NCBI GenBank assembly: GCA_025351325.1
Contig: JANXWE010000066.1
Location: 807 to 64,806, forward strand
Direction of reading: 5' to 3'
Source: Fimbriiglobus sp.
Lineage (GTDB): Bacteria > Planctomycetota > Planctomycetia > Gemmatales > Gemmataceae
Length of the DNA stretch: 64,000 nucleotides
The notes beneath the pieces are model-generated. The model searched no databases and was not told the DNA's origin. It saw only the letters and a program-made list of their open reading frames with translations. This document shows positions 9,345-59,570 of this stretch, piece after piece. Positions within the stretch are counted from its first letter, which is position 1. Every line of letters starts with the position of its first letter. The position numbers were made by a program, and so were the translations under genes.

Positions 9345-10592
9345 TCAACCTTGTGTGCGAAGCACAATGAGAAGTGGAGTCGTTGCCGTTTTCCGTTCCG
9401 AGTACTTGTCGAGAAACGCTTTGAACTCTTTCGACTGTGCTGGGGGCGTGCGGAGGTTCGTCGGCAAGATGGCGAAGGCAATTCCGGATTTCTCGCCCGT
9501 CTTTTTCACGGCATTGGTCACTTTTCCAAGTGTATCGGCTGCAACCGATTTCGGATCACCGGTCGCCGAACGGCCGGGACGAGTCGGTGTGAGGTCGATG
9601 CCAAGAGTCTCTTTGAGATCTCGAATTTCGGTCGCACCGATTGGCAAAAGATGAGCCATGCCGACCGATCGTGGCTTCGGAGCCAGTTGCAGTTGTTCGC
9701 CCACGGCAGCCAGTAACTCGGCGATTTCCGAAGGCGAGACGCCTTCGAGATAGATTGCCACAGTCAGCGGGATTTTGTTGTTCAACAGCTCTTGGGTTTT
9801 CGCATCAATGGTCACCGCAATTCCCGATTTCTTGGCCACCGTTTGCAGCAACTCAAATGCGGACGCTGGAAACTTCGAGAAGAGATCGAGGCGGAAGGCC
9901 GGATCGAGTGCGAGTTCTTGTTTCAACCGCGTTTGCACGTCGAGGCTACCGAACTCGATGGCTTCCGTGAGGAACGGTAACCGCAAGCGGATTTCCGCGA
10001 GCGGCTTCGGATTCTCGATGATCCCGGAGCCGACGACATCGCCAATGGCAGATCGCGGGGTCGGTGCCCGTTCCAATTCCTTGGGCAGGTGAACGATCAC
10101 GTCGTTGTTCGGCACCGGTTGCACAACCGGAGGCTTTTCTTGAGGAGGATTCTGAACGGGTGCAATCGCTACGGAATCAGCGATCGGGGCGATCAATGTC
10201 GGGCCGGTGATCGGCAAACGACGCTGCTGCACTTTGTCTTGTTCACGGCGTTCCGAGGAGACGAATAGCCAGAAAGAAAGGCTGCACATGGCGAAGAAGA
10301 TCGACGCGGCGACAGCGTAGGGTAAAAAGTAGGGCCGACGGCTCGACGCCTGTTTCCGATGGCGGATTTGGATGATCGGCTGAATTCGGCCGAGTACCGC
10401 CGAGAGTTGCGACACGGGAATGGGGTGCTGCGTCGAAAAGCGCAGTTTGAGGGCATCGGCCTGCAAGGCACGGTACAGTGTCGCTGCTTCAGGCTTCGAG
10501 TTCAGCAGGTGCCCGATGGCCAGCGATTGACTCGACGAGAGTTCTCCGTCGACCGCGACCGTCAGCAATTCGAGTTCGTCGGCGTTCAACAT
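9345..10592 (-). CDS. anti-sigma factor, single-pass membrane protein
   Basis: It lies directly downstream of the ECF sigma gene. N-terminus LLTVAVDGELS...ATLYRALQADALKL is anti-sigma-like. There is a central TM (FLPYAVAASIFFAMCSLSFWLFV) and an external domain of about 270 aa. Confidence 0.7.
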   Translation of the reverse strand: MLNADELELLTVAVDGELSSSQSLAIGHLLNSKPEAATLYRALQADALKLRFSTQHPIPVSQLSAVLGRIQPIIQIRHRKQASSRRPYFLPYAVAASIFFAMCSLSFWLFVSSERREQDKVQQRRLPITGPTLIAPIADSVAIAPVQNPPQEKPPVVQPVPNNDVIVHLPKELERAPTPRSAIGDVVGSGIIENPKPLAEIRLRLPFLTEAIEFGSLDVQTRLKQELALDPAFRLDLFSKFPASAFELLQTVAKKSGIAVTIDAKTQELLNNKIPLTVAIYLEGVSPSEIAELLAAVGEQLQLAPKPRSVGMAHLLPIGATEIRDLKETLGIDLTPTRPGRSATGDPKSVAADTLGKVTNAVKKTGEKSGIAFAILPTNLRTPPAQSKEFKAFLDKYSERKTATTPLLIVLRTQG

Positions 10593-10642: not shown

Positions 10643-11242
10643 TTAATCCTGGCTGGCCACCACTTGTTCACTGCCGGTGGATTCGGGATCGAGCAAGTTC
10701 CGCAATTCGAGCCGCGCCCGGTGCAATCGGCTCCGCACCGTGCCGATGGGCACCTTCATCAACTCCGCGATGTCATCGTATTTCAAACCGTCGATGTCCT
10801 TCATGAGCAACACCGCCCGGTGCTCGACCGAGAGTTTCAAGATCGCCGCCGCCAACATCCGCTCGTCTTCGGTTCGTTCCAGTGCGGAATCGGGGGCCAC
10901 ATCGGCCGAGCGATCTTCCGGGTCGATACCCGCCTCACCGTTTCTACCAACCCCGGCATCCAAGCTCACCACGGCTCGCTTCCGACGCTTGGCACTGATC
11001 GCCGTGTTGAAGGCGATCCGGTAGAGCCAAGTGAAGAACTCGGCGTCGCCTTTGAAGCTGGCCAGCGACTGGTACGCATTCACAAAAGCATCTTGAACGA
11101 CATCCAGGGCATCGTCGGGGTTGTCCATCACCCGGTTGGCCACGTGATAGAGCCGATCCTGATACCGCACCACCAGCTCTCCGAAGGAAGCGGTTTTGCC
11201 GGCCAGTGCTTCCGAAATCAGGCGTCGATCATCTGGATTCAC
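10643..11242 (-). CDS. ECF-type RNA polymerase sigma factor
   Basis: Region 2 (DDALDVVQDAFVNAY, FFTWLYRIAFN) and region 4 (LKYDDIAELMKVPIGTVRSRLHRAR) are present. GTG start at 11242. Confidence 0.9.
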   Translation of the reverse strand: MNPDDRRLISEALAGKTASFGELVVRYQDRLYHVANRVMDNPDDALDVVQDAFVNAYQSLASFKGDAEFFTWLYRIAFNTAISAKRRKRAVVSLDAGVGRNGEAGIDPEDRSADVAPDSALERTEDERMLAAAILKLSVEHRAVLLMKDIDGLKYDDIAELMKVPIGTVRSRLHRARLELRNLLDPESTGSEQVVASQD

Positions 11243-11259
11243 GTCGTTCTACACACCGA

Positions 11260-11285
11260 GACGCGGGTTCATGCCCAAAAGTTCC
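11260..11285 (-). promoter_or_regulatory. ECF-type autoregulatory promoter candidate for the sigma/anti-sigma operon
   Basis: The minus strand reads GGAAC (11285..11281), 17 nt, CGTC (11263..11260), about 18 nt upstream of the GTG start. This matches the common GGAAC-N16/17-CGTC ECF pattern. Confidence 0.4.
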
Positions 11286-11463
11286 CGATTTCCCGCAAAT
11301 CGATTCCACCGCTGGAAGTCGGACGTTAAACCCGGCCAATAATGTCGTTGCGTCTGATAAGCTATCAAATTTCCGGGTGGGACAGCTACTGCGATTGTCC
11401 GATCCGTACTATTCAATTGTACTCAGATTCGTTTTATTTCGTCGGAGAGGCTCGCCGAGCATC

Positions 11464-14400
11464 ATGGACAACCCGACCATTCAGGTTCGCGGCGCCCGCG
11501 AACACAATCTTCGCAACGTCAACTTAGAACTTCCCCGGAACAAATTGATCGTTTTCACCGGGGTCAGCGGTTCCGGCAAAAGTTCGCTCGCCTTCGACAC
11601 GTTGTACGCCGAGGGACAACGTCGGTACGTCGAAAGTCTCTCCAATTACGCCCGGCAGTTCCTTGGCCAACTCCCCAAACCCGACGTCGACTATATCGGC
11701 GGTTTGTCGCCGGCGATCAGCATCCAACAAAAAAGTGCGGCACGAAACCCGCGCTCGACCGTCGGCACCGTCACCGAGGTTTCGGACTATTTGCGGGTGT
11801 TGTACGCCCGCGTCGGCCTGGGGCATTGCCCGAATTGCAGCCGGCCGATTGCCGCCCAAACGCGAGAACAGATCCTGGGTCGGATTGCTGCGCTGCCAGA
11901 GGGAGCGCGGTTCAGCATTCTTGCGCCCGTGGTGCGTGGACAAAAAGGAGAGTTCAAAGATTTCTTCGCTGACATGGTGAAGCGTGGCTACGTTCGTGCC
12001 CGCGTCGATGGCGAAATTGTCCGTATGAGCGACGATCTCCGGCTCGACAAAAAGATCAAGCACTCTATCGAGATCGTCATCGACCGGCTGCAATTGAAAC
12101 CGACCGACGGCGCCCAACGCGTGCGGATGGCCGAAGCGGTGGAGCAAGCGCTCGCCCTCGCGGAAGGGAACGTCATCATTTCGGTGGAGCAAGAGATCGC
12201 GTCGGAAACACGCAAACCGAAATCCGAAATCCGATATTCCGACATCCTCTTGTCCGCCCACTACGCCTGCACGCATTGCAGCATCAGCTTCGAGCCGCCG
12301 ACCCCGCAACTCTTCAGCTTCAACAGCCCGATGGGGATGTGCCTCGTGTGCGAAGGCCTCGGCCGCGTCCACAGCTTCGCCCACGAATTGCTCATCGCCG
12401 AACCGACCAAAAGTCTGAGCGACGGTGCGATTCCCCTCGTCGGGGCCGTCAAAGGGATGGGCCGCTGGAAAAAGCACATCTACGAAGGCGTGGCCACCTC
12501 GCTCGGCCTCGACCTCAAAATGCCCTGGAACAAAATGCCGACCGAGCAGCAGCGGCTCTGGTTGCAGGGTTCCGGCGACCGGCACATCGTGTGGGAGTGG
12601 AAGCAGCGCGGCGGCAAGGTCTGGAAACATAGCGGCAAGTGGGAAGGGATCATCCCTCAGCTCATCGGCCAGTTCAAAAAAGCGACCGCCGGCCCGCGGC
12701 GGATGCAGCTCGAAAAGTACATGCGAGTGCAGAACTGCACCGCGTGCCAGGGGGAGCGGCTCAACCCGCAAGCCCGCGCCGTGCGCGTCGGGGATCAAAC
12801 CATTGTGCAAGTCGGCCACATGCCCATCGGCGATCTCGTGCCGTGGTTCGGCACCATGGAAAAAACGTTGACCGCCGTTCAGCGATTCATCGCCGGGGAA
12901 CTGCTCAAAGAGATCCGCTCCCGGCTCGGCTTCCTGCTCAACGTCGGCTTGCACTACCTCAGTCTGGATCGTTCTGCCCCGACCCTCTCGGGGGGCGAAG
13001 CCCAGCGCATCCGCCTCGCCGGGCAGATCGGTTCGGGGCTAGTCGGCGTGCTCTACATCCTCGACGAACCGAGTATCGGCTTGCACCCGCGCGACAACGA
13101 GAGACTGCTCGCCAGCCTGTTGCACCTCCGCGACATGGGCAACACGGTGCTGGTGGTGGAGCATGACGAAGAGACGATGCGGGCCGCGGATTACCTCGTT
13201 GATTTCGGCCCTGGCCCGGGCGTTCGTGGCGGCGAAATCGTCGCGGCGGGTTTACCGAGCGAGGTGCTGGCCAACCCGAACAGCCCCACGGGGCAGTACC
13301 TCACCGGTGTGAAGACGATCCCGATTCCGAAGAAGCGGCGACCGGTCTCCGACAAGGCCATCAAAATCGTCGGGGCCAAGCACAACAACTTGAAAAATGT
13401 GGACGTGAGTATCCCCCTCGGCGTATTCGTTGTCGTCACCGGTGTCAGTGGCAGCGGCAAGAGTTCGCTGATCAACGACGTGCTCAAGTGCGGATTTGGG
13501 ATTTCGGATTTCGAATTGGAAGAGGAAGACAGCGAAAGTGATGCCGAGCTGCCGACATCCAATTCCGAACTCCGCAGCCGGGTGGAACGGATCGAGGGTT
13601 TCGACGCGATCGACAAGTTGATCGACATCGACCAAGCGCCGATCGGGCGGACGCCCCGTTCGAACCCGGCGACCTACATCAAAGTCTGGGACGAGATTCG
13701 GACGCTCTACGCCAACATGAGCGATGCCAAACTGCGGGGCTACAACGCCGGGCGATTCAGTTTCAACCGCCCCGGTGGCCGCTGCGAGGCGTGCGAAGGC
13801 AACGGCTCCAACAAGTTGGAAATGGACTTCCTCGCCGACGTCTGGGTGACCTGCCCGATCTGCGAGGGGCGCCGCTTCAACCACGAAACCCTCCAGGTGA
13901 AGTACCGCGGCAAGAGCATCCACGACGTGCTCGAATTGGAAGTCGGCCAGGGGGTGACGCACTTCGAGAACGTCCCCAAAGTCCACGCGATGTTACAAAC
14001 TCTCCACGATGTGGGCCTCGATTACATCAAGCTCGGCCAGCCGTCGCCGACGCTCTCGGGGGGCGAAGCCCAGCGGGTCAAACTCGCCAAGGAACTCTGC
14101 CGCAAGGGGAGCGGCAAGACGCTGTACATCCTCGACGAACCGACCACCGGGTTGCACTTCGAGGACATCCGCAAGTTGCTCGAGGTGCTCCACGGCTTCG
14201 TCGATCAGGGCAACACCGTCCTCGTGATCGAGCACAATTTGGACGTCATCAAGACCGCCGATTGGGTCATCGACATGGGGCCGGAAGGGGGCAGCACCGG
14301 CGGGCAACTCGTGGCGTGCGGAACCCCGGAAGCGTTGACCAAAGTGGCCGCGTCGCACACGGGGCAGGCCCTGTTGCCCGTGCTGTTCCCCAAGAAAGCC

Positions 14401-17400
14401 AAGGCCAAAGCGGGGAAAGTTCGCAAGGCTACCGCGGCTCCGCTCCAAGTGGAGATGACGCACCTCGAAGTCGAGGGGGCGTCGCAGCACAACTTGAAAA
14501 ATGTGAACGCCCGCATCCCCCGCAACGAGATGACCGTCTTCTGCGGGCCGAGCGGCTCGGGCAAATCGTCGCTGGCGATGGACACCATTTACGCCGAGGG
14601 GCAGCGCCGGTACGTCGAAAGTTTGTCGAGCTACGCCCGGCAATTTCTCGGGCAGGTGCAGAAGCCACGCGTCGAAAGCATCACCGGATTATCGCCCGCC
14701 ATCGCCATCGAACAGAAGACCACGAGTAAATCGCCACGCTCCACCGTCGGCACGATTACCGAGGTCTACGACTACCTGCGCATCTTGTTCACGCGGGTGG
14801 GCCAGCGCTTTTGTCCGCACTGCCAGATCCCCATCGGCACCCAGACGAAGGACGAGATCGTCGAGAAGATCTTGGGCCTCCCGGAGGGGACCAAGCTGTA
14901 CATCCTCGCGCCGTTGGAGCGCAAGGGGCAGGAGAAATACGACACCGTCTGGGAGGAAATCCGCCGGTCGGGTTTCGTGCGGATGCGCGTCGATGGCAAG
15001 TCGTACGGCGTCGACGAGCCGCCGGAAATCGACCACAAGCGGAAGCACAAGATCGAAGTCGTCGTGGACCGCAACGTCGTCCGGCCCGGCACCCGCACCC
15101 GCATCGCGGACGCCGTGGAGCAGGCCCTGAGCCTCGGCCTGGGGGTCATGCACCTCGCCTACGTCGATCTCGACCGCGATGAAACGCTCTGGAAAGTGGA
15201 GCGGTTCTCGCAGCATCTCGCCTGCGACCAGTGCGGGCGGAGCTACGAGCAACTCACCCCGAACAACTACAGCTTCAACAGCCCGCTCGGGTGGTGCCCG
15301 ACTTGCGAAGGCTTGGGCGTCCAGCGCGGTGCCAGCGTGGCCCTGCTCATCGGCAACCCCAAGCTCAGCGTCCGCCAGGGGGCCATCGTCGCCTGGCCAC
15401 GCCCTGACGCAAGCAGCCCGTGGCTCCCGTTCGCAGCCGGTATCGCCGCCCACGTCGGCTTCGACCTCGACACGCCGTACCAAGATCTCGATCCCATCCA
15501 CCAGCGGGCGATCCTCCAAGGGACGGGCGAGGCCTGGATCACTTTGATTTCGGATTTGGGAATGAGGATTTCGGATCCGAAATCTAAGAAATCGAAGAAG
15601 CCTGCGAAAGGTGATTCCGACAATCCCAAATCCGCAATCCCGAATCCGAAATTCCAATACAAGGGTCTCTTCCCCGCCATCGACGAAGCGTCCCGCGTGA
15701 GTTACCAGTACCGGGCGCGGCTCGACCACGTCGTGGACGAGGTGCCCTGCGTCGCCTGCCACGGCGGGCGGTTGCGGGCCGATGCTACGGCCACGCGCTA
15801 CTTGAACCAGACGATCCGCGAAGTCTGCGCCCACCCCATCGGCATCATGCTCCGACAATTCGAAGCGGTGACGTTGGCGGACGCCGAGCAGAAAGTCATC
15901 GGGGAAGTGCTGCGGGAGATCATCAACCGCGTCAAGTTCCTCGTCGACGTCGGCTTGGAATATTTGTCGCTGGATCGCCCCGGCCCGACGCTGTCCGGCG
16001 GCGAAGCGCAGCGGATTCGACTGGCCTCGCAGATCGGTAGCGGCCTGACGGGTGTGCTTTACGTATTGGATGAACCAACCATCGGCCTGCACCCGCGTGA
16101 CAACGCCCGCTTGCTGAAAGCGCTGCATCATCTCCGCGATCTCGGCAACACGTTGCTGCTCGTGGAACACGACCGCGAAGTGATCGCCTCCGCCGATTAC
16201 CTGTTCGACTTCGGCCCCGGTGCCGGCCGGCATGGTGGGGAAATCACGGCCGAGGGAATCCCAAGTGCGGTGCTGAAATCGAAGGCGTCGCTCACGGGAC
16301 AGTACCTGTCCGGCAAGCTCGCGATCGCGGTACCCACGAACCGCCGCATCCATCGCATCGAGCCGAAGAAATTCATGCAGCACGCCGATGCCACCGTTGC
16401 CGAACTCCGGGCAGCATTCCAGTTCCCGCACAAGAGTTTCCTCAGCGTGCTCGGCGCCCGGCACCACAACCTGCGCAACGTCGATGTCCACCTTCCACTC
16501 GGGGCGTTCGTCGTCGTCACGGGGGTGAGTGGCTCCGGGAAAAGTTCGCTCGTCAACGAGGTGCTCTTCAACACCTTGGCGCGGCGGTTGAATCGCGCCC
16601 GCACCACCGGTGCGGCTCACGACGACATCACCGGCATCGAGAACATCGACAAAATCATTCGCGTCGATCAAGACCCGCTCGGTAATTCCCCGTCGAGCAA
16701 CCCGGCCACCTACACCGGTGTCTTCGACCTCATCCGCGAGCTGTTCAGCCGGATGCCTGAATCGAAAGTTCGTGGCTATCCGCCGCGACGCTTCAGTTTC
16801 AACCAGAAAGGCGGCCGGTGCGAAGCGTGCGAAGGCAACGGCCAAAAGAAGATCGAGATGCATTTCCTCCCCGATGTCTGGGTCGAGTGCGACACCTGCC
16901 ATGGCACACGGTACAACCCCGAAACGCTGGCCGTGCAGTACCGCGGCAAGAGCGTCAGCGACGTGTTGAATCTGCCCGTCGATGACGCGCTCGAACTGTT
17001 CGGCAACATCCCCAAGATCCGGGTGATTTTGCAAACGCTCTCCGATGTCGGCCTGGGTTACATGCAGCTCGGGCAGCCGGCACCGACCATGAGTGGCGGC
17101 GAAGCGCAGCGGGTCAAACTCGCCGCGGAACTCGCCCGGCCCAGCACCGGCAAGACGCTCTATCTGCTCGACGAGCCGACGACCGGGCTGCACTTCGACG
17201 ACGTTAAGAAGCTGTTGAACGTGCTCCACCGGTTGACCGATCTGGGCAACACGGTGATCGTGGTCGAGCACAATTTGGACGTCATCAAGACGGCCGATTG
17301 GATCGTCGATATGGGGCCGGAAGCCGGGAGTGGCGGTGGCGAAGTGGTTACGTGTGGCACTCCGGAAGCCGTCGTTCAATTCGCGGATGCCCACCCCGAG

Positions 17401-18492
17401 TTGCCGCTGTACACGAGCCGCGCTTTGAAGCCGGCGCTGGTAGCCGGGCCGTTCGCCGAACGCGAGCGATACGATGCCAAGAAGGCGCTCGCCAAGAAGC
17501 TCGGCGACCTCTCTCTCGACGACGTCGGCAAGGATCAGAAGTTGCCCTGGGAAGCGAACGGGATCCAGTGGCACACGCGGGATCGCATCACCACCAAAGG
17601 CTCACCCTGCAAATGGGACGGGGCCGCGTTGCTCGAGGTCATCACGGGAATTGAGCAACTCGGCAACTTCAGCGATACCGTCTGGGAGCATCGCAGCATC
17701 GTGGAAATCCCAGCCGCGAAGAAATCGCTCGGCTGGTTCTTGCACGCCATGACCGGGCACGAGGCGTACTTGAAACTCGTCTTCCGAGTCGCCCGCAACA
17801 CCTTCAAGCAGGCCACCCTGGTGGAGAAGTTAGCCCTGCGACCGCTCAGCGATTATCCCGGCCACGAGGGGTACGCCCGCGATCACCGCGTGGAAGTCTC
17901 GAACCCGCGTGGCCCGTGGCAAGAAGTCGTTGTGACCATCGTGAAAGTGGCCGAGGTTCAAGTGCCATCGTTTCGAGAATTTTTGAAACAGGCGGCCGAT
18001 TCGTTCCTCGCGGCGACTGCCAAGACCGACGGAGCCTCGGCGGTGGATGCAGCGATGCCTTGGAAAATCAACGGCGAGCAATGGCACGTTGGCGACAAAG
18101 GCTTTCCGCCCGGCAAGAAGCCGAAATGGGATCGGGCGTTGCTACCGAAGCTCCTCCAACTTCTGCACGATGTGGAGCCAACGGCCGAACTGAAGCACGA
18201 CGTCCGCGATGCCATCACCGTGCGGCTGCCGGACATCAGCCGCTTCTGGGTGAGGATCAAGACGAAAGAAGTGGCGTCACTCGAAGTCTGGCTCGTCGCC
18301 AAACCGGGTGCCTTCAACGCTGCCCGGTTCGAAGGCGTCGGTGCGTTGGCCACGGTGGAAGCCGACCGGCAAGAAGGCTGCGCGGTCGTGAAATTGCATT
18401 TCGTGCTGGCGGAACAGCTCGCCTCCAAAAAACTCCTGCCGCTGTTGCGTGAACTGCGACAGGGATTCATCGGCTTGTTCGGCGAACCGTAA
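11464..18492 (+). CDS. uvrA: giant tandem UvrA-UvrA fusion protein with unassigned C-terminal extension containing a duplicated domain (2342 aa)
   Basis: Four Walker A sites (three GVSGSGKSS, one GPSGSGKSS) and four LSGGEAQR signatures. The zinc modules and UvrB-binding-type inserts are present in each half. I chose the ATG at 11464 ([16 protein letters not shown]) because the 11206 start overlaps the divergent sigma gene and adds junk sequence. Confidence 0.85.
12179..12240. repeat. degenerate heptamer-palindrome element inside uvrA module 1 (weak copy)
   Basis: TTCGGTGGAG at about 12180 resembles the inner end of the left arm of the 29056 element. Three AwTCCGn-type units (AAATCCG AAATCCG ATATTCC) sit at 12220..12240. 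It encodes [19 protein letters not shown]. Confidence 0.35.
13490..13576. repeat. heptamer-palindrome element inserted in frame in uvrA module 1
   Basis: Left arm is GCGGATT TGGGATT TCGGATT TCGAATT (13490..13517). Right arm TCCAATTCCGAACTCCGCA (13558..13576) is its imperfect reverse complement. Span is 87 nt (29 codons), encoding [29 protein letters not shown]. Confidence 0.7.
14455..17400 (+). other. UvrA module 2 (second complete UvrA, diverged from module 1)
   Basis: [17 protein letters not shown]... with CPHCQIP, CDQC...CPTCEG and CEACEGNG...CDTCHG zinc modules and two ABC sites. The DNA differs from module 1 at many synonymous positions. Confidence 0.8.
15550..15655. repeat. heptamer-palindrome element inserted in frame in uvrA module 2
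   Basis: Left arm is TCGGATT TGGGAAT GAGGATT TCGGATC CGAAATC (15550..15584). Right arm is ATTCCGA CAATCCC AAATCCG CAATCCC GAATCCG AAATTCC (15614..15655). It encodes [35 protein letters not shown]. Confidence 0.7.
17541..18489 (+). other. C-terminal tandem duplication of an unassigned domain (about 170 + 145 aa)
   Basis: Repeat 1 begins [14 protein letters not shown]...[11 protein letters not shown]. Repeat 2 begins [14 protein letters not shown]...[11 protein letters not shown]. Both continue into alternating hydrophobic strand-like segments. Confidence 0.6.
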
Positions 18493-42468: not shown

Positions 42469-44310
42469 ATGCGGTCACTGACGCTGTCCTTCTTCGCTGT
42501 CTTCGTCGCGTCCCCGAGTTTCGCGCTAGCGCCAACCCCGACGATTCCCCCAACCAAAGACAAAAGTACCGAGAAATCGAAGGCGGAAAAGCCCGTCAAG
42601 CTTCCACCGTCCCCCTTGGATAAAGTCGAGGGCTACAAGAGGCATCTCATTGAAGGATTCACGGTGATGATGAGCACCGAAGCGGGCGAGGGCGAGATCA
42701 AAGATGCCGAACTGAAGCCGATGGACGTTCTGGCACTCGAATTTCAAATCATGAAAAAAGTGATGCCGGTCAAGCAGATCGAACTCTTGCAAAAAATCAC
42801 GATTTGGGCCGAGTGGGACGATTTTCAATCGGTGGGCAATGGCCGGGAAGGTCGAGCGCTGGCCACGTATTACGGCGGGAGCCAGCTCAGTTTGTTGAAC
42901 GAGAAGAAGAATCCGTTCAAGTCCAAATGCGTCACGATCCATTCGTTGAAAATATTGACGGAACAGCATCAGCCGAAAGTCGACAATCAATCGTTGGTGG
43001 TACTCCACGAATTCGCCCACGCGGTCCACGATCAACTCTTGGGGTTCGATCACGACGGAATCAAAGCGGCCTACCGCCAGGCCATGGAACGCAAGCTGTA
43101 CGACAAAGCGCAATACGTCAGCACCAACGAGGCGGAGTTTTTCGCGGAACTCACGTGCGCCTACTACGACCAACTGCAGCACTACCCGAAGACGCGCGAG
43201 GAGTTGAAAAAGCACGATCCCGTGACCCACAAATTGCTGGAATCCGTCTGGGGTACCGCCAAGAAAGCGGTGAAAGCCACGGCTGCGACCGCGAAGCCAA
43301 AACCCCTTTTGGAACTCGACGGCTCCGCCAAATTCGACCTGAAAATACCGCTGGCCGACATCGCGTTTGGGCCGACGATCCACGGCCCAGAATTCAAGGC
43401 GGGGGATGCGAAAGATACGGTTTTGATCCTCTCGAATTTCGGTGGCGATGAACTCTTGGTACTCGAAAAACTGGCGAAAATGCACGAGGAACTCTCGCCG
43501 TATGGTGCGAAAGTCGTGGTGGCCTACTCATTCGTAGCCGAACCGGACGCCGTCAAGAAAAAGCTCGAGGATCGCGGCGTCCTCTTCACCGGACTGGGGA
43601 AAGCACTCTTCGCCCAAAAAGATGGTCAATCCCGTTCGGAAAAGCCCGGCCACACGCTGATATTCGGTTCCGATGGCAAGTGTGTCTTCCGGGGCAGCGG
43701 CTACGACGCCTTGCCCCATGCGCGTGCGGCCGTGATCAAAATGCTGGTGGCCAAATTTGTCAAATCGGAAATTCCCAAAGCGCTGGCCCCTGTTTACGAG
43801 GCCATGGCTCAAGGCACAGTTCCCATTTTAGATTCGGTGCCGAAACTGAACCCGCACCTGACATCAGCTGACTTTGAGGTGGCGGCTGTGGCCAAAGCAT
43901 TGGTCGCGGCCATCTTGGCACCGGCCCAGATCCTATTGTCCGAAGCGCAAAGCAAGGTGAAATCGGATCCACTGGCAGCATTCTTCATCGCCGAGAAGAT
44001 CCCGCAAACTTATAAGGGCACGTCGTTCGCCGCCAAGGGAGCTACGCTGGCTGAGCAATTGAAGCAGCACCCCGATGTGGCGAAAGAGTTGAAAGCTCGC
44101 AAACTGTTCGAGCCGATCCGTAAAGGCGACGTTTACCTGATGGCCCAAGCGGGGAGTTTCAGCCCGCTCGACGAGAAATTCCAAAAAGAGAACGCGAACG
44201 GAATCCAACAACTCGTCGACATCTACGGCGAACTGAAAAAGAAGCATCCCCTCGCGCGGGCGACGGAAGAAGCTTCAAAAATCGTTGCGAAATACCGCAT
44301 CGGAGATTGA
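42469..44310 (+). CDS. secreted putative zinc metallopeptidase (HExxH, gluzincin-like) with C-terminal unassigned domains
   Basis: Signal peptide MRSLTLSFFAVFVASPSFALA. VVLHEFAHAVHD is followed by NEAEFFAELT, a downstream Glu motif as in MtfA/ATLF-like zincins. Confidence 0.5.
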   Translation: MRSLTLSFFAVFVASPSFALAPTPTIPPTKDKSTEKSKAEKPVKLPPSPLDKVEGYKRHLIEGFTVMMSTEAGEGEIKDAELKPMDVLALEFQIMKKVMPVKQIELLQKITIWAEWDDFQSVGNGREGRALATYYGGSQLSLLNEKKNPFKSKCVTIHSLKILTEQHQPKVDNQSLVVLHEFAHAVHDQLLGFDHDGIKAAYRQAMERKLYDKAQYVSTNEAEFFAELTCAYYDQLQHYPKTREELKKHDPVTHKLLESVWGTAKKAVKATAATAKPKPLLELDGSAKFDLKIPLADIAFGPTIHGPEFKAGDAKDTVLILSNFGGDELLVLEKLAKMHEELSPYGAKVVVAYSFVAEPDAVKKKLEDRGVLFTGLGKALFAQKDGQSRSEKPGHTLIFGSDGKCVFRGSGYDALPHARAAVIKMLVAKFVKSEIPKALAPVYEAMAQGTVPILDSVPKLNPHLTSADFEVAAVAKALVAAILAPAQILLSEAQSKVKSDPLAAFFIAEKIPQTYKGTSFAAKGATLAEQLKQHPDVAKELKARKLFEPIRKGDVYLMAQAGSFSPLDEKFQKENANGIQQLVDIYGELKKKHPLARATEEASKIVAKYRIGD

Positions 44311-45654: not shown

Positions 45655-47187
45655 TTATTCCATTCCTCCGGGCGGCCCACCACCAGGGGGGCCGGCGCCG
45701 GGTGGAGGAGCCGTGCGGACAATTTTCAAATTGGATTCGATGCGAGTCACCTTCCAAGGACACGATCTCGACAGGTCGTCCGGGAAGTTCATCGACTGAC
45801 CCGCTTTCAACCCAACTTCGCGGGCCGCATTGAGTTTGGCGAGAATCACGGGATCGTCGAGAGTCAACACCATCCGCCCGAGTGCCGCGGAATTCTTCGG
45901 GTCGGACTTCAACAGTTTCAGTTCGATCGCAACCGAGATTTCGACCCGATCCGGGAAGAATCGAATCATGCTATTCTTATCGGGTGAATTGCTCAATGTC
46001 CGTCCCGACATGGTGATCTTGTCGAAGGCGACGTTGTTCCAGCAGAAGAGGAAATCTTCGCGGGTGGCATCCGTCATCATTTTTCCATCCGGAAGGGGAA
46101 CCTGAACGAAGAAATCCTTTTGCAGCGCCTTGGTATACTCCGGACTCGTCGGCCAGAAGATACCCAGTGCCCCTGTGATTTTTGAACGCTCGTAGGCGGT
46201 GAACACGATCCGTTCGCTCGTCTCTTTTGAAATCTTGCCTTTGGTGAAGACTTCATAAGCCAACGGCTGTGCCAGAAGGGCATCGGGAACGAACATAGGA
46301 ATGGGAATGCCGTCGAGTAAGGTTCGTGCGGACGCGACTTGCAAGAATTGATCCACCGTGCTTTGTGCGGTCTTATCGAGCCATTCGACCATCCAACCGT
46401 ACGGAGTTCGCTTGGCCCCTTGGGCATCCTGGACGTACCCGTCGAACGTCGCCACTTGCCATTCGCGCTTCCCGGATTCTACAGTCGCAATCATCGGAAT
46501 GATCAGATTGAATTCGCCCTCCGGACACGACAGTGTCGCGGCGAGAGCGCACTCGATCTTCCCTGGCACCTGCTGCCACTGTTTGAGGCCTTGCGGCTTC
46601 AGTTCGCACTGCCCGGGGTTGCGAAGAATCATCATCAACAGTTTGTTTTGACGGAACGTCACGAAGTCCTGCGCGAAGCGCTCTTGCATCACCGTGGTAC
46701 TACTCGGCGAGAATGCGCCCCGCTGCTTCGGTGGCAATGTTTGGTAAAACGAAGTGGACAGTGCCAAGTCATTCGGGGTGGCGGGATCGACCTTGGTCAG
46801 GTTGTCGGCCCAGCTCACGAATTGTTTCTCGGTATCCGCGCGGATCGTGTATTCCGTCGCCCCGAGATACGCCGCGTAACAGAGTCCGCCGACAACACAA
46901 ATCCACCAGGCCCGCGTGGCCCATTCCAGTCCGGTGCGGGTATTTTCGGAATTGATGATGTGCCGGCGTGCCGCGAAAGCCAGCACGACCCCCAAGATCG
47001 GGAAGACGAACAGCCACGGCTCGATGAGCGGTTTGCTTTCCCGAAATGCGAAATAGCCCAGGGACAACAAGAGCGTGGCGAAGAGCATCGCCACGCTGAA
47101 GGACGTGGCCGCCATCCAAGACAGCGGCGAATAATCCGTTTGCGGATCGAGCGGGGTGGTATTCAATCGAGGCGTCGTATCGGCCAT
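45655..47187 (-). CDS. hypothetical membrane protein with P/G-rich C-terminal tail
   Basis: About four N-terminal TM helices and a soluble domain of about 350 aa. It ends APPPGAGPPGGGPPGGME. It lies downstream of rpoZ on the same strand. Confidence 0.6.
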   Translation of the reverse strand: MADTTPRLNTTPLDPQTDYSPLSWMAATSFSVAMLFATLLLSLGYFAFRESKPLIEPWLFVFPILGVVLAFAARRHIINSENTRTGLEWATRAWWICVVGGLCYAAYLGATEYTIRADTEKQFVSWADNLTKVDPATPNDLALSTSFYQTLPPKQRGAFSPSSTTVMQERFAQDFVTFRQNKLLMMILRNPGQCELKPQGLKQWQQVPGKIECALAATLSCPEGEFNLIIPMIATVESGKREWQVATFDGYVQDAQGAKRTPYGWMVEWLDKTAQSTVDQFLQVASARTLLDGIPIPMFVPDALLAQPLAYEVFTKGKISKETSERIVFTAYERSKITGALGIFWPTSPEYTKALQKDFFVQVPLPDGKMMTDATREDFLFCWNNVAFDKITMSGRTLSNSPDKNSMIRFFPDRVEISVAIELKLLKSDPKNSAALGRMVLTLDDPVILAKLNAAREVGLKAGQSMNFPDDLSRSCPWKVTRIESNLKIVRTAPPPGAGPPGGGPPGGME

Positions 47188-52343: not shown

Positions 52344-52667
52344 TTAGAATTCTTCGGATTCGCGGCATCGGACACGAGCAAGTTCGGCTGGAGACAGATA
52401 CTTTTCTTGGCATCGCGCGACTTCTTCGATGTTGAACAGCAATGCGCCAACCGAGCGGATCCAATTGCCGAGTTCAACGTCGCTGTAGCGGTAGAGATGG
52501 AATGAGAAACAGCCCCACTCATGCGAGTGTCGCGCAGCGTATTCTTCGGGGTGCAAGCGGAGATCGTCCGGCGAGAAGAACTGTCTGAGAAGGGGTTCGC
52601 CTTCGTAGTCGAAACGACCGCGAGGTGCTTCCAAAGAGTCTGTGGTCATATCGATCACTCTCGCCAT
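52344..52667 (-). CDS. hypothetical protein (about 107 aa) between pheA and DAHP synthase
   Basis: ATG at 52667 (or 52649). Sequence ...[44 protein letters not shown]... No family recognised. The upstream part of the 190-aa ORF overlaps pheA and is junk. Confidence 0.4.
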
Positions 52668-52741
52668 CTTCAGCCCGAAGGGCTGGGAGTTCTCAGCCTG
52701 GGGCAACGCCCCTGGCGAAGCTCGCCGCGTCGTCCACGCGA

Positions 52742-53830
52742 CTACTCTTCCGAAGTCGCCGAGATCGGATACGACCCGAGCGGGGTGACGGCGTCGCAGA
52801 TCTCTTCGAGATGCTTGACGGTCTTCTTCACTTTCGGGTCGTCGCGATGACCTTCGAAGTCGACGAAGAACACGTATTCCCCTTTGGCTTCCCGGTACGG
52901 GAACGATTCGATCCAAGTCAGGTTGATCTTATTGGATTTGAACACGTTCAGCACGTCCGCGAGTGCTCCCGGGGTGTGCGATACTTGGAAGATCAGCGCG
53001 GTTTTGTCGTGGCCAGTACGAGTACTGTCTTGCAAAGCGATCACGGCGAATCGCGTTTCGTTTTCCGGGTGATCTTCGATCGCGGCGAAGATGGTCTTCA
53101 ATCCGTACCGGACACCGGCCTGACGGCTGGCCACGGCGGCGGCGAACGGCTCCGTTTGCACCAACCGGGCGGCATCGGCCGTGCTGTTCACCGGGTGCAT
53201 ACTGGCGTTCGGCAAGTTCTTGCTGAGCCACTGCCGACACTGCGACAGTGCTTGGGCTTTGCTGTACACGCGGCGGATTTCCGACGGCTGACAATTCGCC
53301 AACAAATGGTGGTGGACGCGCATCCGAATTTCAGAACAAATTTTCACGGTCGGATTGCGGATGAAACAATCGAGCGTGTCGGCGATGCGGCCGTCGGTGC
53401 TGTTTTCGAGCGGGACGACCCCGAAATTGGAGTGCTTGCGGGCCACCTCGTCGAAGACGGCCTGGATCGACCCGACGTGGGAGTACTCGGACGATTGCCC
53501 GAACCGTTCGATAGCGGCCAAATGGCTGTAACTGTATTCCGGCCCGAGGAATGCGACGCGTTGAATCGATTGGATCGCCCGCGACCCGCTGATCAATTCG
53601 CGGAAAATCGCTTTGAGGGTCACCTCCGGAAGCGGCCCTTTGCTCGCTTTGAGAATGTTCGCCAGGACTTCTTCTTCACGCGCTGCCGAGAAAACCTCGC
53701 CGCCGGTTTCAGATTTCACTTTGCCAATTTGAGCGGCGATCCCAGCTCGTTTCGACAAAGATTGCAGGATCTCCAGATCGAGTTTGTCGATCTGCCCGCG
53801 GAGTTGTTTCAAATTGCCGGCGGTGCTCAT
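52742..53830 (-). CDS. pheA: bifunctional chorismate mutase / prephenate dehydratase (P-protein)
   Basis: N-terminal CM (LRGQIDKLDLEILQSLSKRAG), PDT core (VAFLGPEYSYSH, PLENSTDGRI), and C-terminal ACT with the ESFPYR (ESRP-like) motif. Confidence 0.9.
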   Translation of the reverse strand: MSTAGNLKQLRGQIDKLDLEILQSLSKRAGIAAQIGKVKSETGGEVFSAAREEEVLANILKASKGPLPEVTLKAIFRELISGSRAIQSIQRVAFLGPEYSYSHLAAIERFGQSSEYSHVGSIQAVFDEVARKHSNFGVVPLENSTDGRIADTLDCFIRNPTVKICSEIRMRVHHHLLANCQPSEIRRVYSKAQALSQCRQWLSKNLPNASMHPVNSTADAARLVQTEPFAAAVASRQAGVRYGLKTIFAAIEDHPENETRFAVIALQDSTRTGHDKTALIFQVSHTPGALADVLNVFKSNKINLTWIESFPYREAKGEYVFFVDFEGHRDDPKVKKTVKHLEEICDAVTPLGSYPISATSEE

Positions 53831-54204
53831 ATCGCGCCTGACGGTGCAGTAGTTTGGGGCGTAAAGTTCGGCCTGCCATCAACCTACAGTCGCGGGAATG
53901 CAGCGTCAACGAATCCGACACCGGAATGCGAGAAAAGGACGAATCGGGACGATTTCGACGATTTGATAAAAGCGGCTAAATGGTCGGATGCAGGGATTGG
54001 CGTGCCGGAATGGCAGCAACTGATAACACTCTAGAATCTGGATTAAAAAAATATTACCACAAAACATTGCTACAAAACGACTTGGATCATTCTGTCACTT
54101 CGAAATTCGCCGACCAATAATTTTGGCCTGCCAGTTGCTTGTTATTGTCTGTTCGACAAAACACGATTGCTATTCAAAACACAAACATTTGAGGAATACC
54201 GAAC

Positions 54205-57128: not shown

Positions 57129-57476
57129 ATGGACTCCGACTTCTTCCCCAATTGGATCACACAGATGCGGAAAGGGCTGCTCGAACTGAGCGTTCTGGCC
57201 GCCCTGAAGGGGAACCGCCTCTACGGCTACGACATCGTCAAACGCTTATCCGGGGTCGGTGGACTCGTGATGAGCGAAGGTACCATTTACCCGATCCTCA
57301 GCCGCTTCAAAAAAGAGGGTTTGGTCGAGACCACGTTGGTGGAATCGACCGAAGGCCCCGCTCGAAAATATTACCTTCTCACAATCAAAGGTCAGCAGAT
57401 GCTAGCGCACATGCTCGCGGCTTGGGCCGAGGTGCGCGACGGCATCGACCACGTTTCCACGGGGCAGACACCATGA
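57129..57476 (+). CDS. PadR family transcriptional regulator
   Basis: LLELSVLAALKGNRLYGYDIVKRL...SEGTIYPILSRFKKEGLVE is the PadR winged-helix signature. Confidence 0.9.
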   Translation: MDSDFFPNWITQMRKGLLELSVLAALKGNRLYGYDIVKRLSGVGGLVMSEGTIYPILSRFKKEGLVETTLVESTEGPARKYYLLTIKGQQMLAHMLAAWAEVRDGIDHVSTGQTP

Positions 57477-58468
57477 CCGGAGCCTTCGCCATGACGGTTT
57501 TGACCGACTCCGCCGCCGGCAGATTGCACGACTACCTCACGCAAGTGCGGGTGGCTCTCGCGGCCCATCCGGATGTCTCGTCCGAGGAAGTCACCGCCGA
57601 TGTGCAAGAGCATATCGACACCGAGTTCGCCCACGTGAACCGGCCGGTGACACTTGAAGAATTGGAAGCCGTGCTCGCCCGTCTCGGCCCTCCGAACCAG
57701 TGGGCCAACGTCGGTGTCAATTCTCAAGCATTTACCAACGGGGTCGCCCCGTTCGACGGCAAAGAGTTTCTGCGGGAACTACGCCGGAAATCGCGTGGCG
57801 TGTTGGCCACCCTTTGGCGTGGGCCGGAAGATTGGCGGTTACCCTACCTGACGTTCGGGCTGACGCTCCTCGCCCCGGTGACACTCGGCTTCACATTGCT
57901 GCTAGCCTATTTGCTCGGTCGGGCGACCGTCGAACTGGCGCACGAAAAGGGTCAACCGCTCGGGGCCAGACGCTGGCTCGTCTACCCGGCGATTCTGATC
58001 GTCAATGGGTCACTGCTCTTCGGATTGCTGTTCGGGCCAGCCCTCATCGCTGGGAATTACGCCGGTCTCGAGTTCAATCACGCCATCCGTTCGGAACGCG
58101 ACGGTTGGCCGACCGGTGAGAGAATCGCGAAAACAAGAGCGCAATATGACGCGATGCGCAAAGCGAGTACACTGCCGATGCCGGATGCCGACCGCGCTTA
58201 TTACGAGCGGATTCTCGCGGTTCCCCGCCAGATGCACGTGACCAGCGATTCTGGGGGCGAAATGGTTTTCGCGGTATTGGCAGCGATCGGCCCCTTGGCC
58301 GTATGGTGGGCCATTCTCGGACTGGTGATGTGGTCGTTCCCCAAATTAGTTACGACGATCTTCCATCCGCTGCTGGACGGTTACGACTGGCTTCACGGAT
58401 TGCGGCTGGCCACGTGCAGCGGGATCGTCTTTGTCATCTGGGCCGGTACGGCCCAGCGAATTTGGTGA
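57473..58468 (+). CDS. membrane protein with N-terminal DUF1700/HAAS-like domain (PadR-associated sensor)
   Basis: ATGA overlap with padR. N-terminus LHDYLTQVRVAL...EEVTADVQEHIDTEF matches the HAAS-type helix pattern. Several TM helices follow. Confidence 0.6.
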   Translation: MTGAFAMTVLTDSAAGRLHDYLTQVRVALAAHPDVSSEEVTADVQEHIDTEFAHVNRPVTLEELEAVLARLGPPNQWANVGVNSQAFTNGVAPFDGKEFLRELRRKSRGVLATLWRGPEDWRLPYLTFGLTLLAPVTLGFTLLLAYLLGRATVELAHEKGQPLGARRWLVYPAILIVNGSLLFGLLFGPALIAGNYAGLEFNHAIRSERDGWPTGERIAKTRAQYDAMRKASTLPMPDADRAYYERILAVPRQMHVTSDSGGEMVFAVLAAIGPLAVWWAILGLVMWSFPKLVTTIFHPLLDGYDWLHGLRLATCSGIVFVIWAGTAQRIW

Positions 58469-58550: not shown

Positions 58551-59570
58551 TTGCCGATGAGTACCGATCTCGACCAACACGACGACGAGTTGGATGTCGC
58601 CGTGGCCGACCAGACCGAACCGGGCGAAGACACTTTCTGGCAATTGCATTCGCCGCGCTTCGAGATGCCCATTTCGTACGTCAGCTCGGCTCTCATCATG
58701 GCGGGGATTCTCGCGTTGATCTTGGCGATCTCCTACCTCTCCAATACGGGCCCCAAGCAAGATCCGGTTCCGATTGCTCTCGCCAACGACGGCACCGACG
58801 ATAGCGGCGAAGGTTCCGAAGGACTCGGCGGCCAAGAGAATCCGATCACCCTCGGTGCCTCCGCCCCCACGCCAGAAGACTTCGAGTCGTTACCGCACCC
58901 CGAATTAATTCCCGAAATCAAAAAGGAGCTCGAAGAGAGGCTGAAAATCGACGATCCGGATTCGGTGGTTCCGCTCACGACCGAGAAAGTTGCCCCCTAC
59001 ACCACTTTCGATAAAAAAGTGCGCGACACGTTGCTCAACCCCGGTTCCAAGCGCGGCACGCCCGGTGGCGATGGCAGCGGTACCGATAATAAGGGTTCCG
59101 GCGTGGGTGGTAAGGGTGCTGACAGTACCCGGCAACGCTCGATGCGCTGGACAATGCAGTTCGTCACCAGCAGCGGCCGCGATTACTTGAACCAGTTGGC
59201 GACGCTCAAAGCGGTCATCGTGGTTCCGATTCCACCCGATGGCAAAACGGCTTACGTGTTCAAAGACCTCATCAATCCAAAACCGGGGAATTTCGTCGAA
59301 GAGAAGGAGTGGATGAAACTGGCCGGCCAGATTCAATTCTGCGACTTCCGCAAGCAATCCGTCACAGAAGTCTCTGCCGCCCTCAACATGAACTTCACGC
59401 CAGCGTCGTTCTTCGCGTTCTTCCCCAGAGATTTGGAAGCCGAACTCTCCCGGTTGGAAGTGGCCTACGGGAACAAGCAAGCCGATCAAATTGAAGAAAC
59501 GAAGTTCGAGGTGACGGTACGCGGTGGGGTGTCGAAAATCGTCGTCGTGTCCCAGAAATTGAAGCGATAA
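58551..59570 (+). CDS. hypothetical single-pass membrane protein with acidic/Pro-rich linker and C-terminal globular domain
   Basis: TM ALIMAGILALILAISYL, then a D/E/G/P-rich linker of about 130 aa, then a structured C-terminus of about 130 aa. Convergent with the ExbBDD operon. Confidence 0.55.
   Translation: MPMSTDLDQHDDELDVAVADQTEPGEDTFWQLHSPRFEMPISYVSSALIMAGILALILAISYLSNTGPKQDPVPIALANDGTDDSGEGSEGLGGQENPITLGASAPTPEDFESLPHPELIPEIKKELEERLKIDDPDSVVPLTTEKVAPYTTFDKKVRDTLLNPGSKRGTPGGDGSGTDNKGSGVGGKGADSTRQRSMRWTMQFVTSSGRDYLNQLATLKAVIVVPIPPDGKTAYVFKDLINPKPGNFVEEKEWMKLAGQIQFCDFRKQSVTEVSAALNMNFTPASFFAFFPRDLEAELSRLEVAYGNKQADQIEETKFEVTVRGGVSKIVVVSQKLKR

Follow-up and report, generated by a model that had tools for sequence, protein, structure and literature searches.

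The window analysed here is a stretch of 64,000 nucleotides from Fimbriiglobus sp. (Gemmataceae, Planctomycetota; contig JANXWE010000066.1 of assembly GCA_025351325.1), and its subject is a long uvrA gene on the forward strand. An unbroken stop-to-stop frame (11206..18492) contains the gene, which runs from an ATG at 11464 to the stop at 18492 and encodes 2342 amino acids. This start is considered sound because the predicted N-terminus coincides in alignment with those annotated for all close homologues. The protein comprises two complete class I UvrA units, joined by a basic linker and followed by a C-terminal extension, in one chain (Table 1).

Table 1 Features of the long uvrA gene and its divergent neighbour, with positions in the window
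Feature	Position	Strand	Evidence or remark
uvrA coding sequence	11464..18492	+	Unit 1, linker, unit 2, twin-domain extension; 2342 aa plus stop
UvrA unit 1, aa 1-974	11464..14385	+	NF001503, TIGR00630; PDB chains match aa 5-974; 51% identity to E. coli UvrA
Walker A, ATP site I, unit 1 (GVSGSGKS, K39)	11560..11583	+	K39 invariant in 119/119
UvrB-binding domain, unit 1, aa 132-242	11857..12189	+	PF17760; matches G. stearothermophilus UvrA interaction domain 3fpn_A over aa 132-242
Insertion (DNA-binding) domain, unit 1, aa 308-418	12385..12717	+	Best PF17755 stretch
Walker A, ATP site II, unit 1 (K666)	13441..13464	+	Motif scan, conservation
GRTPRSNP, signature domain II, unit 1	13645..13668	+	Canonical R729 and R732 (= E. 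coli R695, R698); invariant in 119/119
C-terminal zinc hairpin (Zn3), unit 1, C774..C800	13783..13863	+	Unit-1-specific EMDFLAD; cysteines invariant; fixed H754D, P757A against E. coli EMHFLPD
Inter-unit linker, aa 975-1000, 26 aa	14386..14463	+	Basic, K/R/P/T/A-rich, isoelectric point 10.7
UvrA unit 2, aa 1001-1985	14464..17418	+	NF001503, TIGR00630, PDB UvrA; 50% identity to E. coli UvrA
Walker A, ATP site I, unit 2 (GPSGSGKS, K1034)	14545..14568	+	Motif scan, conservation
UvrB-binding domain, unit 2, aa 1127-1234	14842..15165	+	Best PF17760 stretch, profile positions 1-108 of 109
Insertion domain, unit 2, between Zn2 cysteines C1281 and C1429	15307..15747	+	Second PF17755 stretch; alignment to unit 1 and E. 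coli
Walker A, ATP site II, unit 2 (K1693)	16522..16545	+	Motif scan, conservation
GNSPSSNP, signature domain II, unit 2	16681..16704	+	N1741 and S1744 in place of both canonical arginines
C-terminal zinc hairpin (Zn3), unit 2, C1786..C1812	16819..16899	+	Canonical EMHFLPD
Extension lead-in, aa 1986-2020	17419..17523	+	Helical; AlphaFold2 pLDDT 71-76 over first 50 residues
Extension repeat X1, aa 2021-2193	17524..18042	+	Motif PWxxxGxxWHxxxR...W.G
Extension repeat X2, aa 2194-2342	18043..18489	+	Motif MPWKxxGExWHxxxKGFPxG...W
ECF sigma-70 factor gene, divergent neighbour	10643..11242	-	Pfam Sigma70_r2/r4_2/ECF

Membership of class I UvrA was judged by the curated cut-offs of two NCBIfam equivalog models, with each unit scanned alone. 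Against NF001503 (cut-off 1147 bits) unit 1 scored 1347.4 and unit 2 scored 1265.7 bits, and against TIGR00630 (cut-off 729.8 bits) the scores were 1294.4 and 1226.2 bits; the UvrA equivalog models of NCBIfam matched twice in the whole protein. Pfam searches returned two stretches each for UvrA_inter (PF17760, the UvrB-binding domain, E 9e-71) and UvrA_DNA-bind (PF17755, the insertion domain, E 2.5e-33). Solved class I UvrA chains in the PDB matched both halves end to end, at 1071 bits for unit 1 and 1022 bits for unit 2. An earlier note, made from the sequence alone, had proposed two complete UvrA proteins in a single frame of 2342 codons, each retaining the UvrB-binding insert, and these double matches and per-half scores bear out both points.

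The motif content described in that note was also recovered, with one correction. Walker A motifs begin at amino acids 33, 660, 1028 and 1687, and four Walker B motifs (DEP) are present. Four ATP-binding cassette (ABC) signatures were found as predicted, of which three read LSGGEAQR, as the note had given for all of them, and one reads MSGGEAQR (aa 1876). Together these form four complete ATPase sets (Walker A, Q-loop, signature, Walker B, H-loop), two sites per unit. The zinc modules are duplicated as proposed: 12 CxxC pairs sit at equivalent positions in the two units and make up three four-cysteine modules in each. The short K/A-rich linker placed by the note at about 14389..14454 occupies 14386-14463 and is basic and K/R/P/T/A-rich, and the unassigned extension of roughly 360 residues after unit 2 measures 357, with no match in Pfam or NCBIfam. 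Units 1 and 2 are 49% identical in protein sequence over about 1000 amino acids, and their DNA is alike only in patches, at no more than 68-74%, in agreement with the note's argument against assembly collapse of a recent duplication. The canonical description of UvrA as a non-covalent homodimer of one chain of about 950 amino acids does not fit this protein, in which one chain contains two diverged units.

Two long antisense open reading frames lie within the gene, at 14689-17574 (-, 961 aa) and 11524-12954 (-, 476 aa); we take them to be by-products of the high G+C content (about 62%) and not genes. No promoter-like or terminator-like sites were found on the forward strand within uvrA. The insertion domain of unit 2 contains a 14-nucleotide tandem repeat, TCCGCAATCCCAAA, present in 2.9 copies at 15616-15657 (Tandem Repeats Finder). 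The K/P/S-rich insert that bears this repeat (aa ~1370-1398) is variable and is without a counterpart in unit 1 or in E. coli UvrA.

Distribution, age and divergence of the two units

A homologue search covering 5.8 billion protein clusters identified at least 118 clusters of full-length homologues, 2276-2425 amino acids long, with 65-85% identity and about 100% coverage. Such lengths agree with the double architecture that the earlier note had read from the window. The homologues come from Gemmata, Fimbriiglobus ruber, Limnoglobus roseus, Urbifossiella and many metagenome-assembled genomes (MAGs) of Gemmataceae, several of them on contigs of 5.8-9.4 Mb, and are labelled at source only as 'excinuclease ABC subunit UvrA'. 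The assemblies are independent, and those of Gemmata, Fimbriiglobus and Limnoglobus include closed genomes. The best full-length match is 85% identical, the extension is 78% identical to locus L001, and the window is most Fimbriiglobus-like. With this identity and coverage to Gemmataceae and other Planctomycetia proteins, the gene is an orthologue of the standard, housekeeping uvrA of the class Planctomycetia, in which the fusion is the norm.

A profile of the extension was scanned against one genome per GTDB species and matched at least 579 species-level genomes, including Gemmatales, Pirellulales, Pirellulaceae and Thermoguttaceae. Eighty loci were fetched; 39 of them have enough upstream DNA and show a single open reading frame of about 2250-3020 codons from stop to stop with four Walker A motifs, and these include the Pirellulales/Pirellulaceae loci L071, L075, L077 and L079. 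The frame is broken in about a dozen related loci, by frameshifts scattered from amino acid 250 to 2056, and many of these are MAGs with contig names suggestive of long-read assembly. A clean split between units 1 and 2 at the linker was not found among the related loci, and both units are present in every complete locus.

Two side observations concern these loci. Four of them (L003, L031, L033 and L062) lose frame or similarity at query amino acids ~250-260, in a variable insert that ends the first UvrB-binding domain, and at the same place unit 1 of the Pirellulaceae locus L079 carries an acidic, Gly-rich insertion of about 60 amino acids; this site is perhaps especially prone to low-complexity expansion or to errors of assembly. 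Six loci (L011, L040, L043, L046, L057, L072) come from MAGs titled 'uncultured Alcaligenaceae bacterium' and carry the planctomycete-type double uvrA with its extension; their Alcaligenaceae labels are probably wrong.

Both units of ten Gemmatales and Pirellulales proteins were aligned with E. coli UvrA (NC_000913.3). In this alignment unit 1 and unit 2 are 48-52% identical to each other and either is 48-55% identical to E. coli UvrA, while identities are 59-77% among unit-1 orthologues and 58-76% among unit-2 orthologues. A recent duplication was ruled out, the halves (49-51% identical) being as distant from each other as either is from E. coli UvrA. In neighbour-joining analysis of the Gemmatales and Pirellulales proteins, unit 1 and unit 2 each formed its own clade in 200 of 200 bootstrap replicates. 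These clades, with the orthologue identities, indicate a fusion older than the split between the two orders, and by this comparison the one-frame architecture predates that split. The identity of about 50% between the units, and between each of them and E. coli UvrA, likewise points to an ancient fusion and dates the duplication, by sequence divergence, to about the time of separation from proteobacterial UvrA.

Conservation was scored as the mean fraction of residues identical to the query in a set of 119 full-length sequences, the set used for all residue counts given here. The means were 0.74 for unit 1, 0.73 for unit 2, 0.32 for the linker, which varies from 22 to 39 amino acids among the homologues, and 0.52 for the extension; residues 1351-1400 in the insertion domain of unit 2 are poorly conserved (0.32). 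No sequence in the set departs from the query at any of the four Walker A lysines, the H-loop histidines or the Q-loop glutamines. The Walker B acidic residues (D/E) and the signature residues are likewise invariant, save for one sequence each at S1511 and E1537 of unit 2, and 23 of the 24 zinc cysteines are the same throughout. Both units are, as judged from these scores, under equal purifying selection, with neither degenerating. The sole zinc ligand that varies is C1120 (nucleotide ~14821), the second cysteine of zinc module 1 in unit 2, which is replaced by aspartate in 9 of the 119 sequences.

Differences between the units were sought at positions at least 95% fixed in both, by comparison with E. 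coli UvrA. At 287 of these positions both units share the E. coli residue; at 21 positions unit 1 agrees with E. coli and unit 2 differs, and at 12 the reverse is seen. The changes in unit 2 include R695N and R698S (E. coli numbering), with N1741 present in 118 and S1744 in 117 of the 119 sequences, whereas the equivalent R729 and R732 of unit 1 are kept in all 119. The loss of these arginines from unit 2 is also seen in Pirellulaceae L079. The opposite pattern was found in the C-terminal zinc hairpin (Zn3), which reads EMDFLAD in unit 1 (H754D, P757A) and the canonical EMHFLPD in unit 2. Both elements lie within signature domain II, a domain that bears cationic DNA-binding residues and whose C-terminal zinc hairpin has been implicated in the interaction with damaged DNA (PMC6486640).

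The twin-domain C-terminal extension

The extension (aa 1986-2342, 357 amino acids) follows directly after unit 2. Its two parts, X1 and X2, matched each other in a profile-profile comparison (hhalign) with 97.4% probability and an E-value of 1.4e-11 over 145 columns, which identifies the extension, at the level of sequence profiles, as two homologous domains in tandem, each about 150-170 amino acids long. A repeated motif with invariant residues is present in both repeats. AlphaFold2 gave a mean predicted local distance difference test (pLDDT) of 90.0 for X1 and X2 together, and for X1 alone a pLDDT of 94.6 and a predicted TM-score (pTM) of 0.89, with the secondary-structure order alpha-beta3-alpha-beta2-alpha.

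The extension gave no match to Pfam at E <= 10 or to NCBIfam at E <= 1e-50, and none to plasmids by tblastn. A fold was to be assigned at a Foldseek E-value of <= 0.001 together with a TM-score of >= 0.5 on both chains; searches of the PDB and BFVD with the two-repeat and single-repeat models returned nothing at E <= 0.001. The two-repeat model reached an E-value of 0.0058 at best and the single repeat one of 0.068, with query TM-scores of no more than 0.35. The weak matches that recurred were to class I chaperones of type III secretion, a YbjN-family protein, the C-terminal DNA-binding domain of T4 MotA and LAGLIDADG enzymes. The chaperones, the YbjN-like fold and the MotA domain share the secondary-structure order of the extension repeat, and the chaperones work as dimers while the repeat is duplicated in tandem; the likeness fails the thresholds for assignment (TM-scores <= 0.56, identity 6-16%) and is treated as a lead.

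A hidden Markov model of the extension searched against 1.84 billion representative proteins gave 656 matches, and all those inspected were C-terminal pieces of long UvrA proteins. Four apparent stand-alone copies, short matches located on long contigs, were rejected: P0176 is a fragment of a frameshifted full-length gene, and P0257, P0286 and P0287 are 5'-truncated pieces that still hold unit 2. By these searches the X1-X2 domain seems to be confined to the long UvrA of planctomycetes. One may speculate that it serves as an accessory module, pseudo-dimeric in form, for binding DNA or a partner protein; this is a guess. As a predicted well-folded, conserved and unannotated family, the twin C-terminal domain merits a Pfam entry.

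Genomic neighbourhood

The long uvrA stands alone, between a divergent gene for an extracytoplasmic function (ECF) sigma-70 factor upstream and a convergent esterase-like gene downstream. A divergent ECF sigma-70 gene was also found next to the long uvrA of a distant related genome (L082, 552-1154, -). The shared arrangement points to conserved synteny and possibly to common regulation, the functional link between the two genes being putative. The remainder of the window is housekeeping in character (pyruvate carboxylase, G6PD, PurK, RibBA, DAHP synthase, DnaK, TIM), and no uvrB, uvrC, tRNA or Rfam family was found within the 64,000 nucleotides.

Five open reading frames of 339-510 amino acids have no Pfam match (E <= 1e-4/1e-5): 9345-10592 (-), 45655-47187 (-), 52625-54034 (+), 57152-58468 (+) and 58551-59570 (+). 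The first of these adjoins the ECF sigma gene and could be its anti-sigma factor or partner. A 613-amino-acid frame at 42469-44310 (+) gave a weak match (E 2.4e-7, 31 bits) to an ATLF (anthrax lethal factor N/C-terminal) metalloprotease-like domain.

Arrangement of the units and comparison with known UvrA proteins

The protein is the standard UvrA of Planctomycetia, the subunit that senses damage in UvrABC nucleotide excision repair, and the product of an ancient duplication or fusion to which a lineage-specific twin domain has been added. It probably acts as an intramolecular, asymmetric UvrA pseudo-dimer. The flexible basic linker of 22-39 amino acids would let units 1 and 2 fold back into a head-to-head UvrA2 dimer within one chain. 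Such a chain would offer four sites for ATP together with a pair of UvrB-binding domains, and could load two UvrB molecules in the manner of canonical UvrA2B2. The units would be non-equivalent because the proposed dimer is covalent, unit 1 providing the arginine pair and an altered Zn3 hairpin and unit 2 a canonical Zn3 hairpin without the arginines, and the outcome would be an obligate asymmetric pseudo-heterodimer. Reciprocal, complementary divergence combined with intact catalytic machinery is what would be expected of an obligate 1:1 pseudo-heterodimer. The earlier note had suggested a covalent single-chain dimer with halves free to diverge; this is plausible, and it fits both the equal conservation of the units and their reciprocal fixed substitutions.

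Certain points weigh against the pseudo-dimer. There are few asymmetric substitutions, and what they do to function is extrapolated from work on other species. The first arginine of the R729/R732 pair presumably corresponds to R691 of Bacillus caldotenax UvrA, reportedly a DNA-binding mutant of Croteau et al. 2008. A role for the extension is without significant homology support (Foldseek E-values of 0.006-0.07 at best). A more elaborate form of the proposal, which we hold only tentatively and consider doubtful, is that the protein is a natural, obligately asymmetric single-chain heterodimer with divided roles, in which unit 1 would keep the arginine DNA clamp of signature domain II and unit 2 the canonical damage-sensing zinc hairpin. 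The X1-X2 region, previously undescribed and with no detectable relatives outside this protein, would then link the sensor with a partner specific to the lineage, or with the condensed nucleoid or the membrane fraction of planctomycetes.

The main rival to the pseudo-dimer is pairing between chains, a dimer of tandems in which unit 1 would associate with either unit of another molecule. The product would be an assembly of four UvrA units with as many as four UvrB sites, or filaments along DNA. The minimum linker of 22 amino acids might be short for some dimer geometries, and the dimerisation of UvrA is dynamic and modulated by nucleotide (PMC6486640), but reciprocal complementary divergence is a prediction of an obligate 1:1 partnership, and the units occur together in every complete locus and are never split at the linker; we regard inter-chain pairing as rather unlikely. 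It is less probable still that just one unit works, with its partner reduced to a degenerate scaffold or a regulatory copy, comparable to the non-catalytic halves of some ABC proteins. Unit 2 would be the candidate, as it lacks the arginine pair found in E. coli and in every unit 1 and carries extra low-complexity inserts, yet apart from the exceptions at S1511, E1537 and C1120 the catalytic and zinc residues are essentially invariant in both units, both retain the UvrB-binding and insertion domains, overall conservation is equal, and each unit scores above the equivalog cut-offs.

Two further explanations would deny that the chain is a genuine pair of class I units. UvrA paralogues in other roles exist (PMC5128194; PMC9328131), and unit 2 with the extension might be a class II-like resistance or accessory paralogue of the UvrA2/DrrC/Ecm16 type fused to a genuine UvrA. 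This is very improbable, given that class II proteins lack the UvrB-binding domain that unit 2 matches at 108 of its 109 profile positions (1-108), and that unit 2 scores above the class I cut-offs. A sequencing or assembly error, by which two adjacent uvrA genes would be joined through a lost stop codon or a frameshift in the linker, could draw on the dozen or so related loci with broken frames, but those breaks are scattered and none falls cleanly at the linker, more than 100 independent assemblies keep one frame, some of them on contigs of multi-megabase size, and the fusion is stated in a published study (PMC8567305). The artefact is effectively refuted.

The two protomers of canonical UvrA2 do not differ chemically, and whether they have separate roles in lesion search, verification and hand-off to UvrB has been hard to probe for that reason. 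A natural covalent tandem would be a ready-made system for protomer-specific mutagenesis and cryo-electron microscopy, because its two units have long been fixed as different. Aside from the twin domain and the asymmetry the gene is ordinary, a housekeeping uvrA in a housekeeping neighbourhood. What is new here is the twin-domain extension and the reciprocal fixed changes in DNA-contacting elements of both units.

The novelty of the fusion implied by the earlier note does not hold. Fusion of two UvrA proteins in Planctomycetes had already been noted by Mahajan et al. (2021, Front Microbiol 12:643045; PMC8567305), such proteins are routinely annotated as UvrA, and an NCBIfam model of about 1800 positions exists. 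The architecture described there is the same, two units in one open reading frame of about twice the E. coli length, and the present gene is another member. In the same study all four subunits of UvrABCD are reported from Tuwongella immobilis (Gemmataceae), found by liquid chromatography-tandem mass spectrometry in the fraction soluble in sodium dodecyl sulphate; the passages searched do not describe twin C-terminal domains, the linker or unit-specific substitutions. Our literature searches turned up neither biochemical nor structural work on the fused protein, and nothing usable on tandem 'class III/IV' UvrA. The fusion architecture is thus already known, as a class that is recorded and not biochemically characterised.

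The closest model by length is NF001885 (PRK00635), a UvrA equivalog of 1809 positions named 'excinuclease ABC subunit A'. We take it to represent the UvrA of roughly 1790 amino acids of Chlamydiae, a family that is also about twice the normal length and possibly belongs to the same Planctomycetes-Verrucomicrobia-Chlamydiae superphylum. Membership was ruled out: the whole protein scored 1348.5 bits, far below the required 3054, and units 1 and 2 alike aligned to the first ~920 positions of the model (unit 1 at 5-920, unit 2 at 7-907) and not one to each half, and therefore the window protein is not a member. The second half of NF001885 is a different, more divergent module, and the model has no counterpart of the X1-X2 extension.

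Class II UvrA proteins (D. radiodurans UvrA2, 2VF7; DrrC; Ecm16, 7SH1) are ABC ATPases of the UvrA fold and show that the family can diversify. They lack the UvrB-binding domain (PMC5128194), whereas both units here carry PF17760, and class II chains in the PDB score far lower against units 1 and 2 (653/599 and 476/439 bits). With the canonical class I proteins (E. coli b4058; G. stearothermophilus 2R6F; M. tuberculosis 3ZQJ; T. maritima 3PIH) each unit shares the same full domain set. Those proteins are chains of about 940-990 amino acids that form a non-covalent homodimer, whereas here two diverged units are joined covalently and followed by a further 357 residues.

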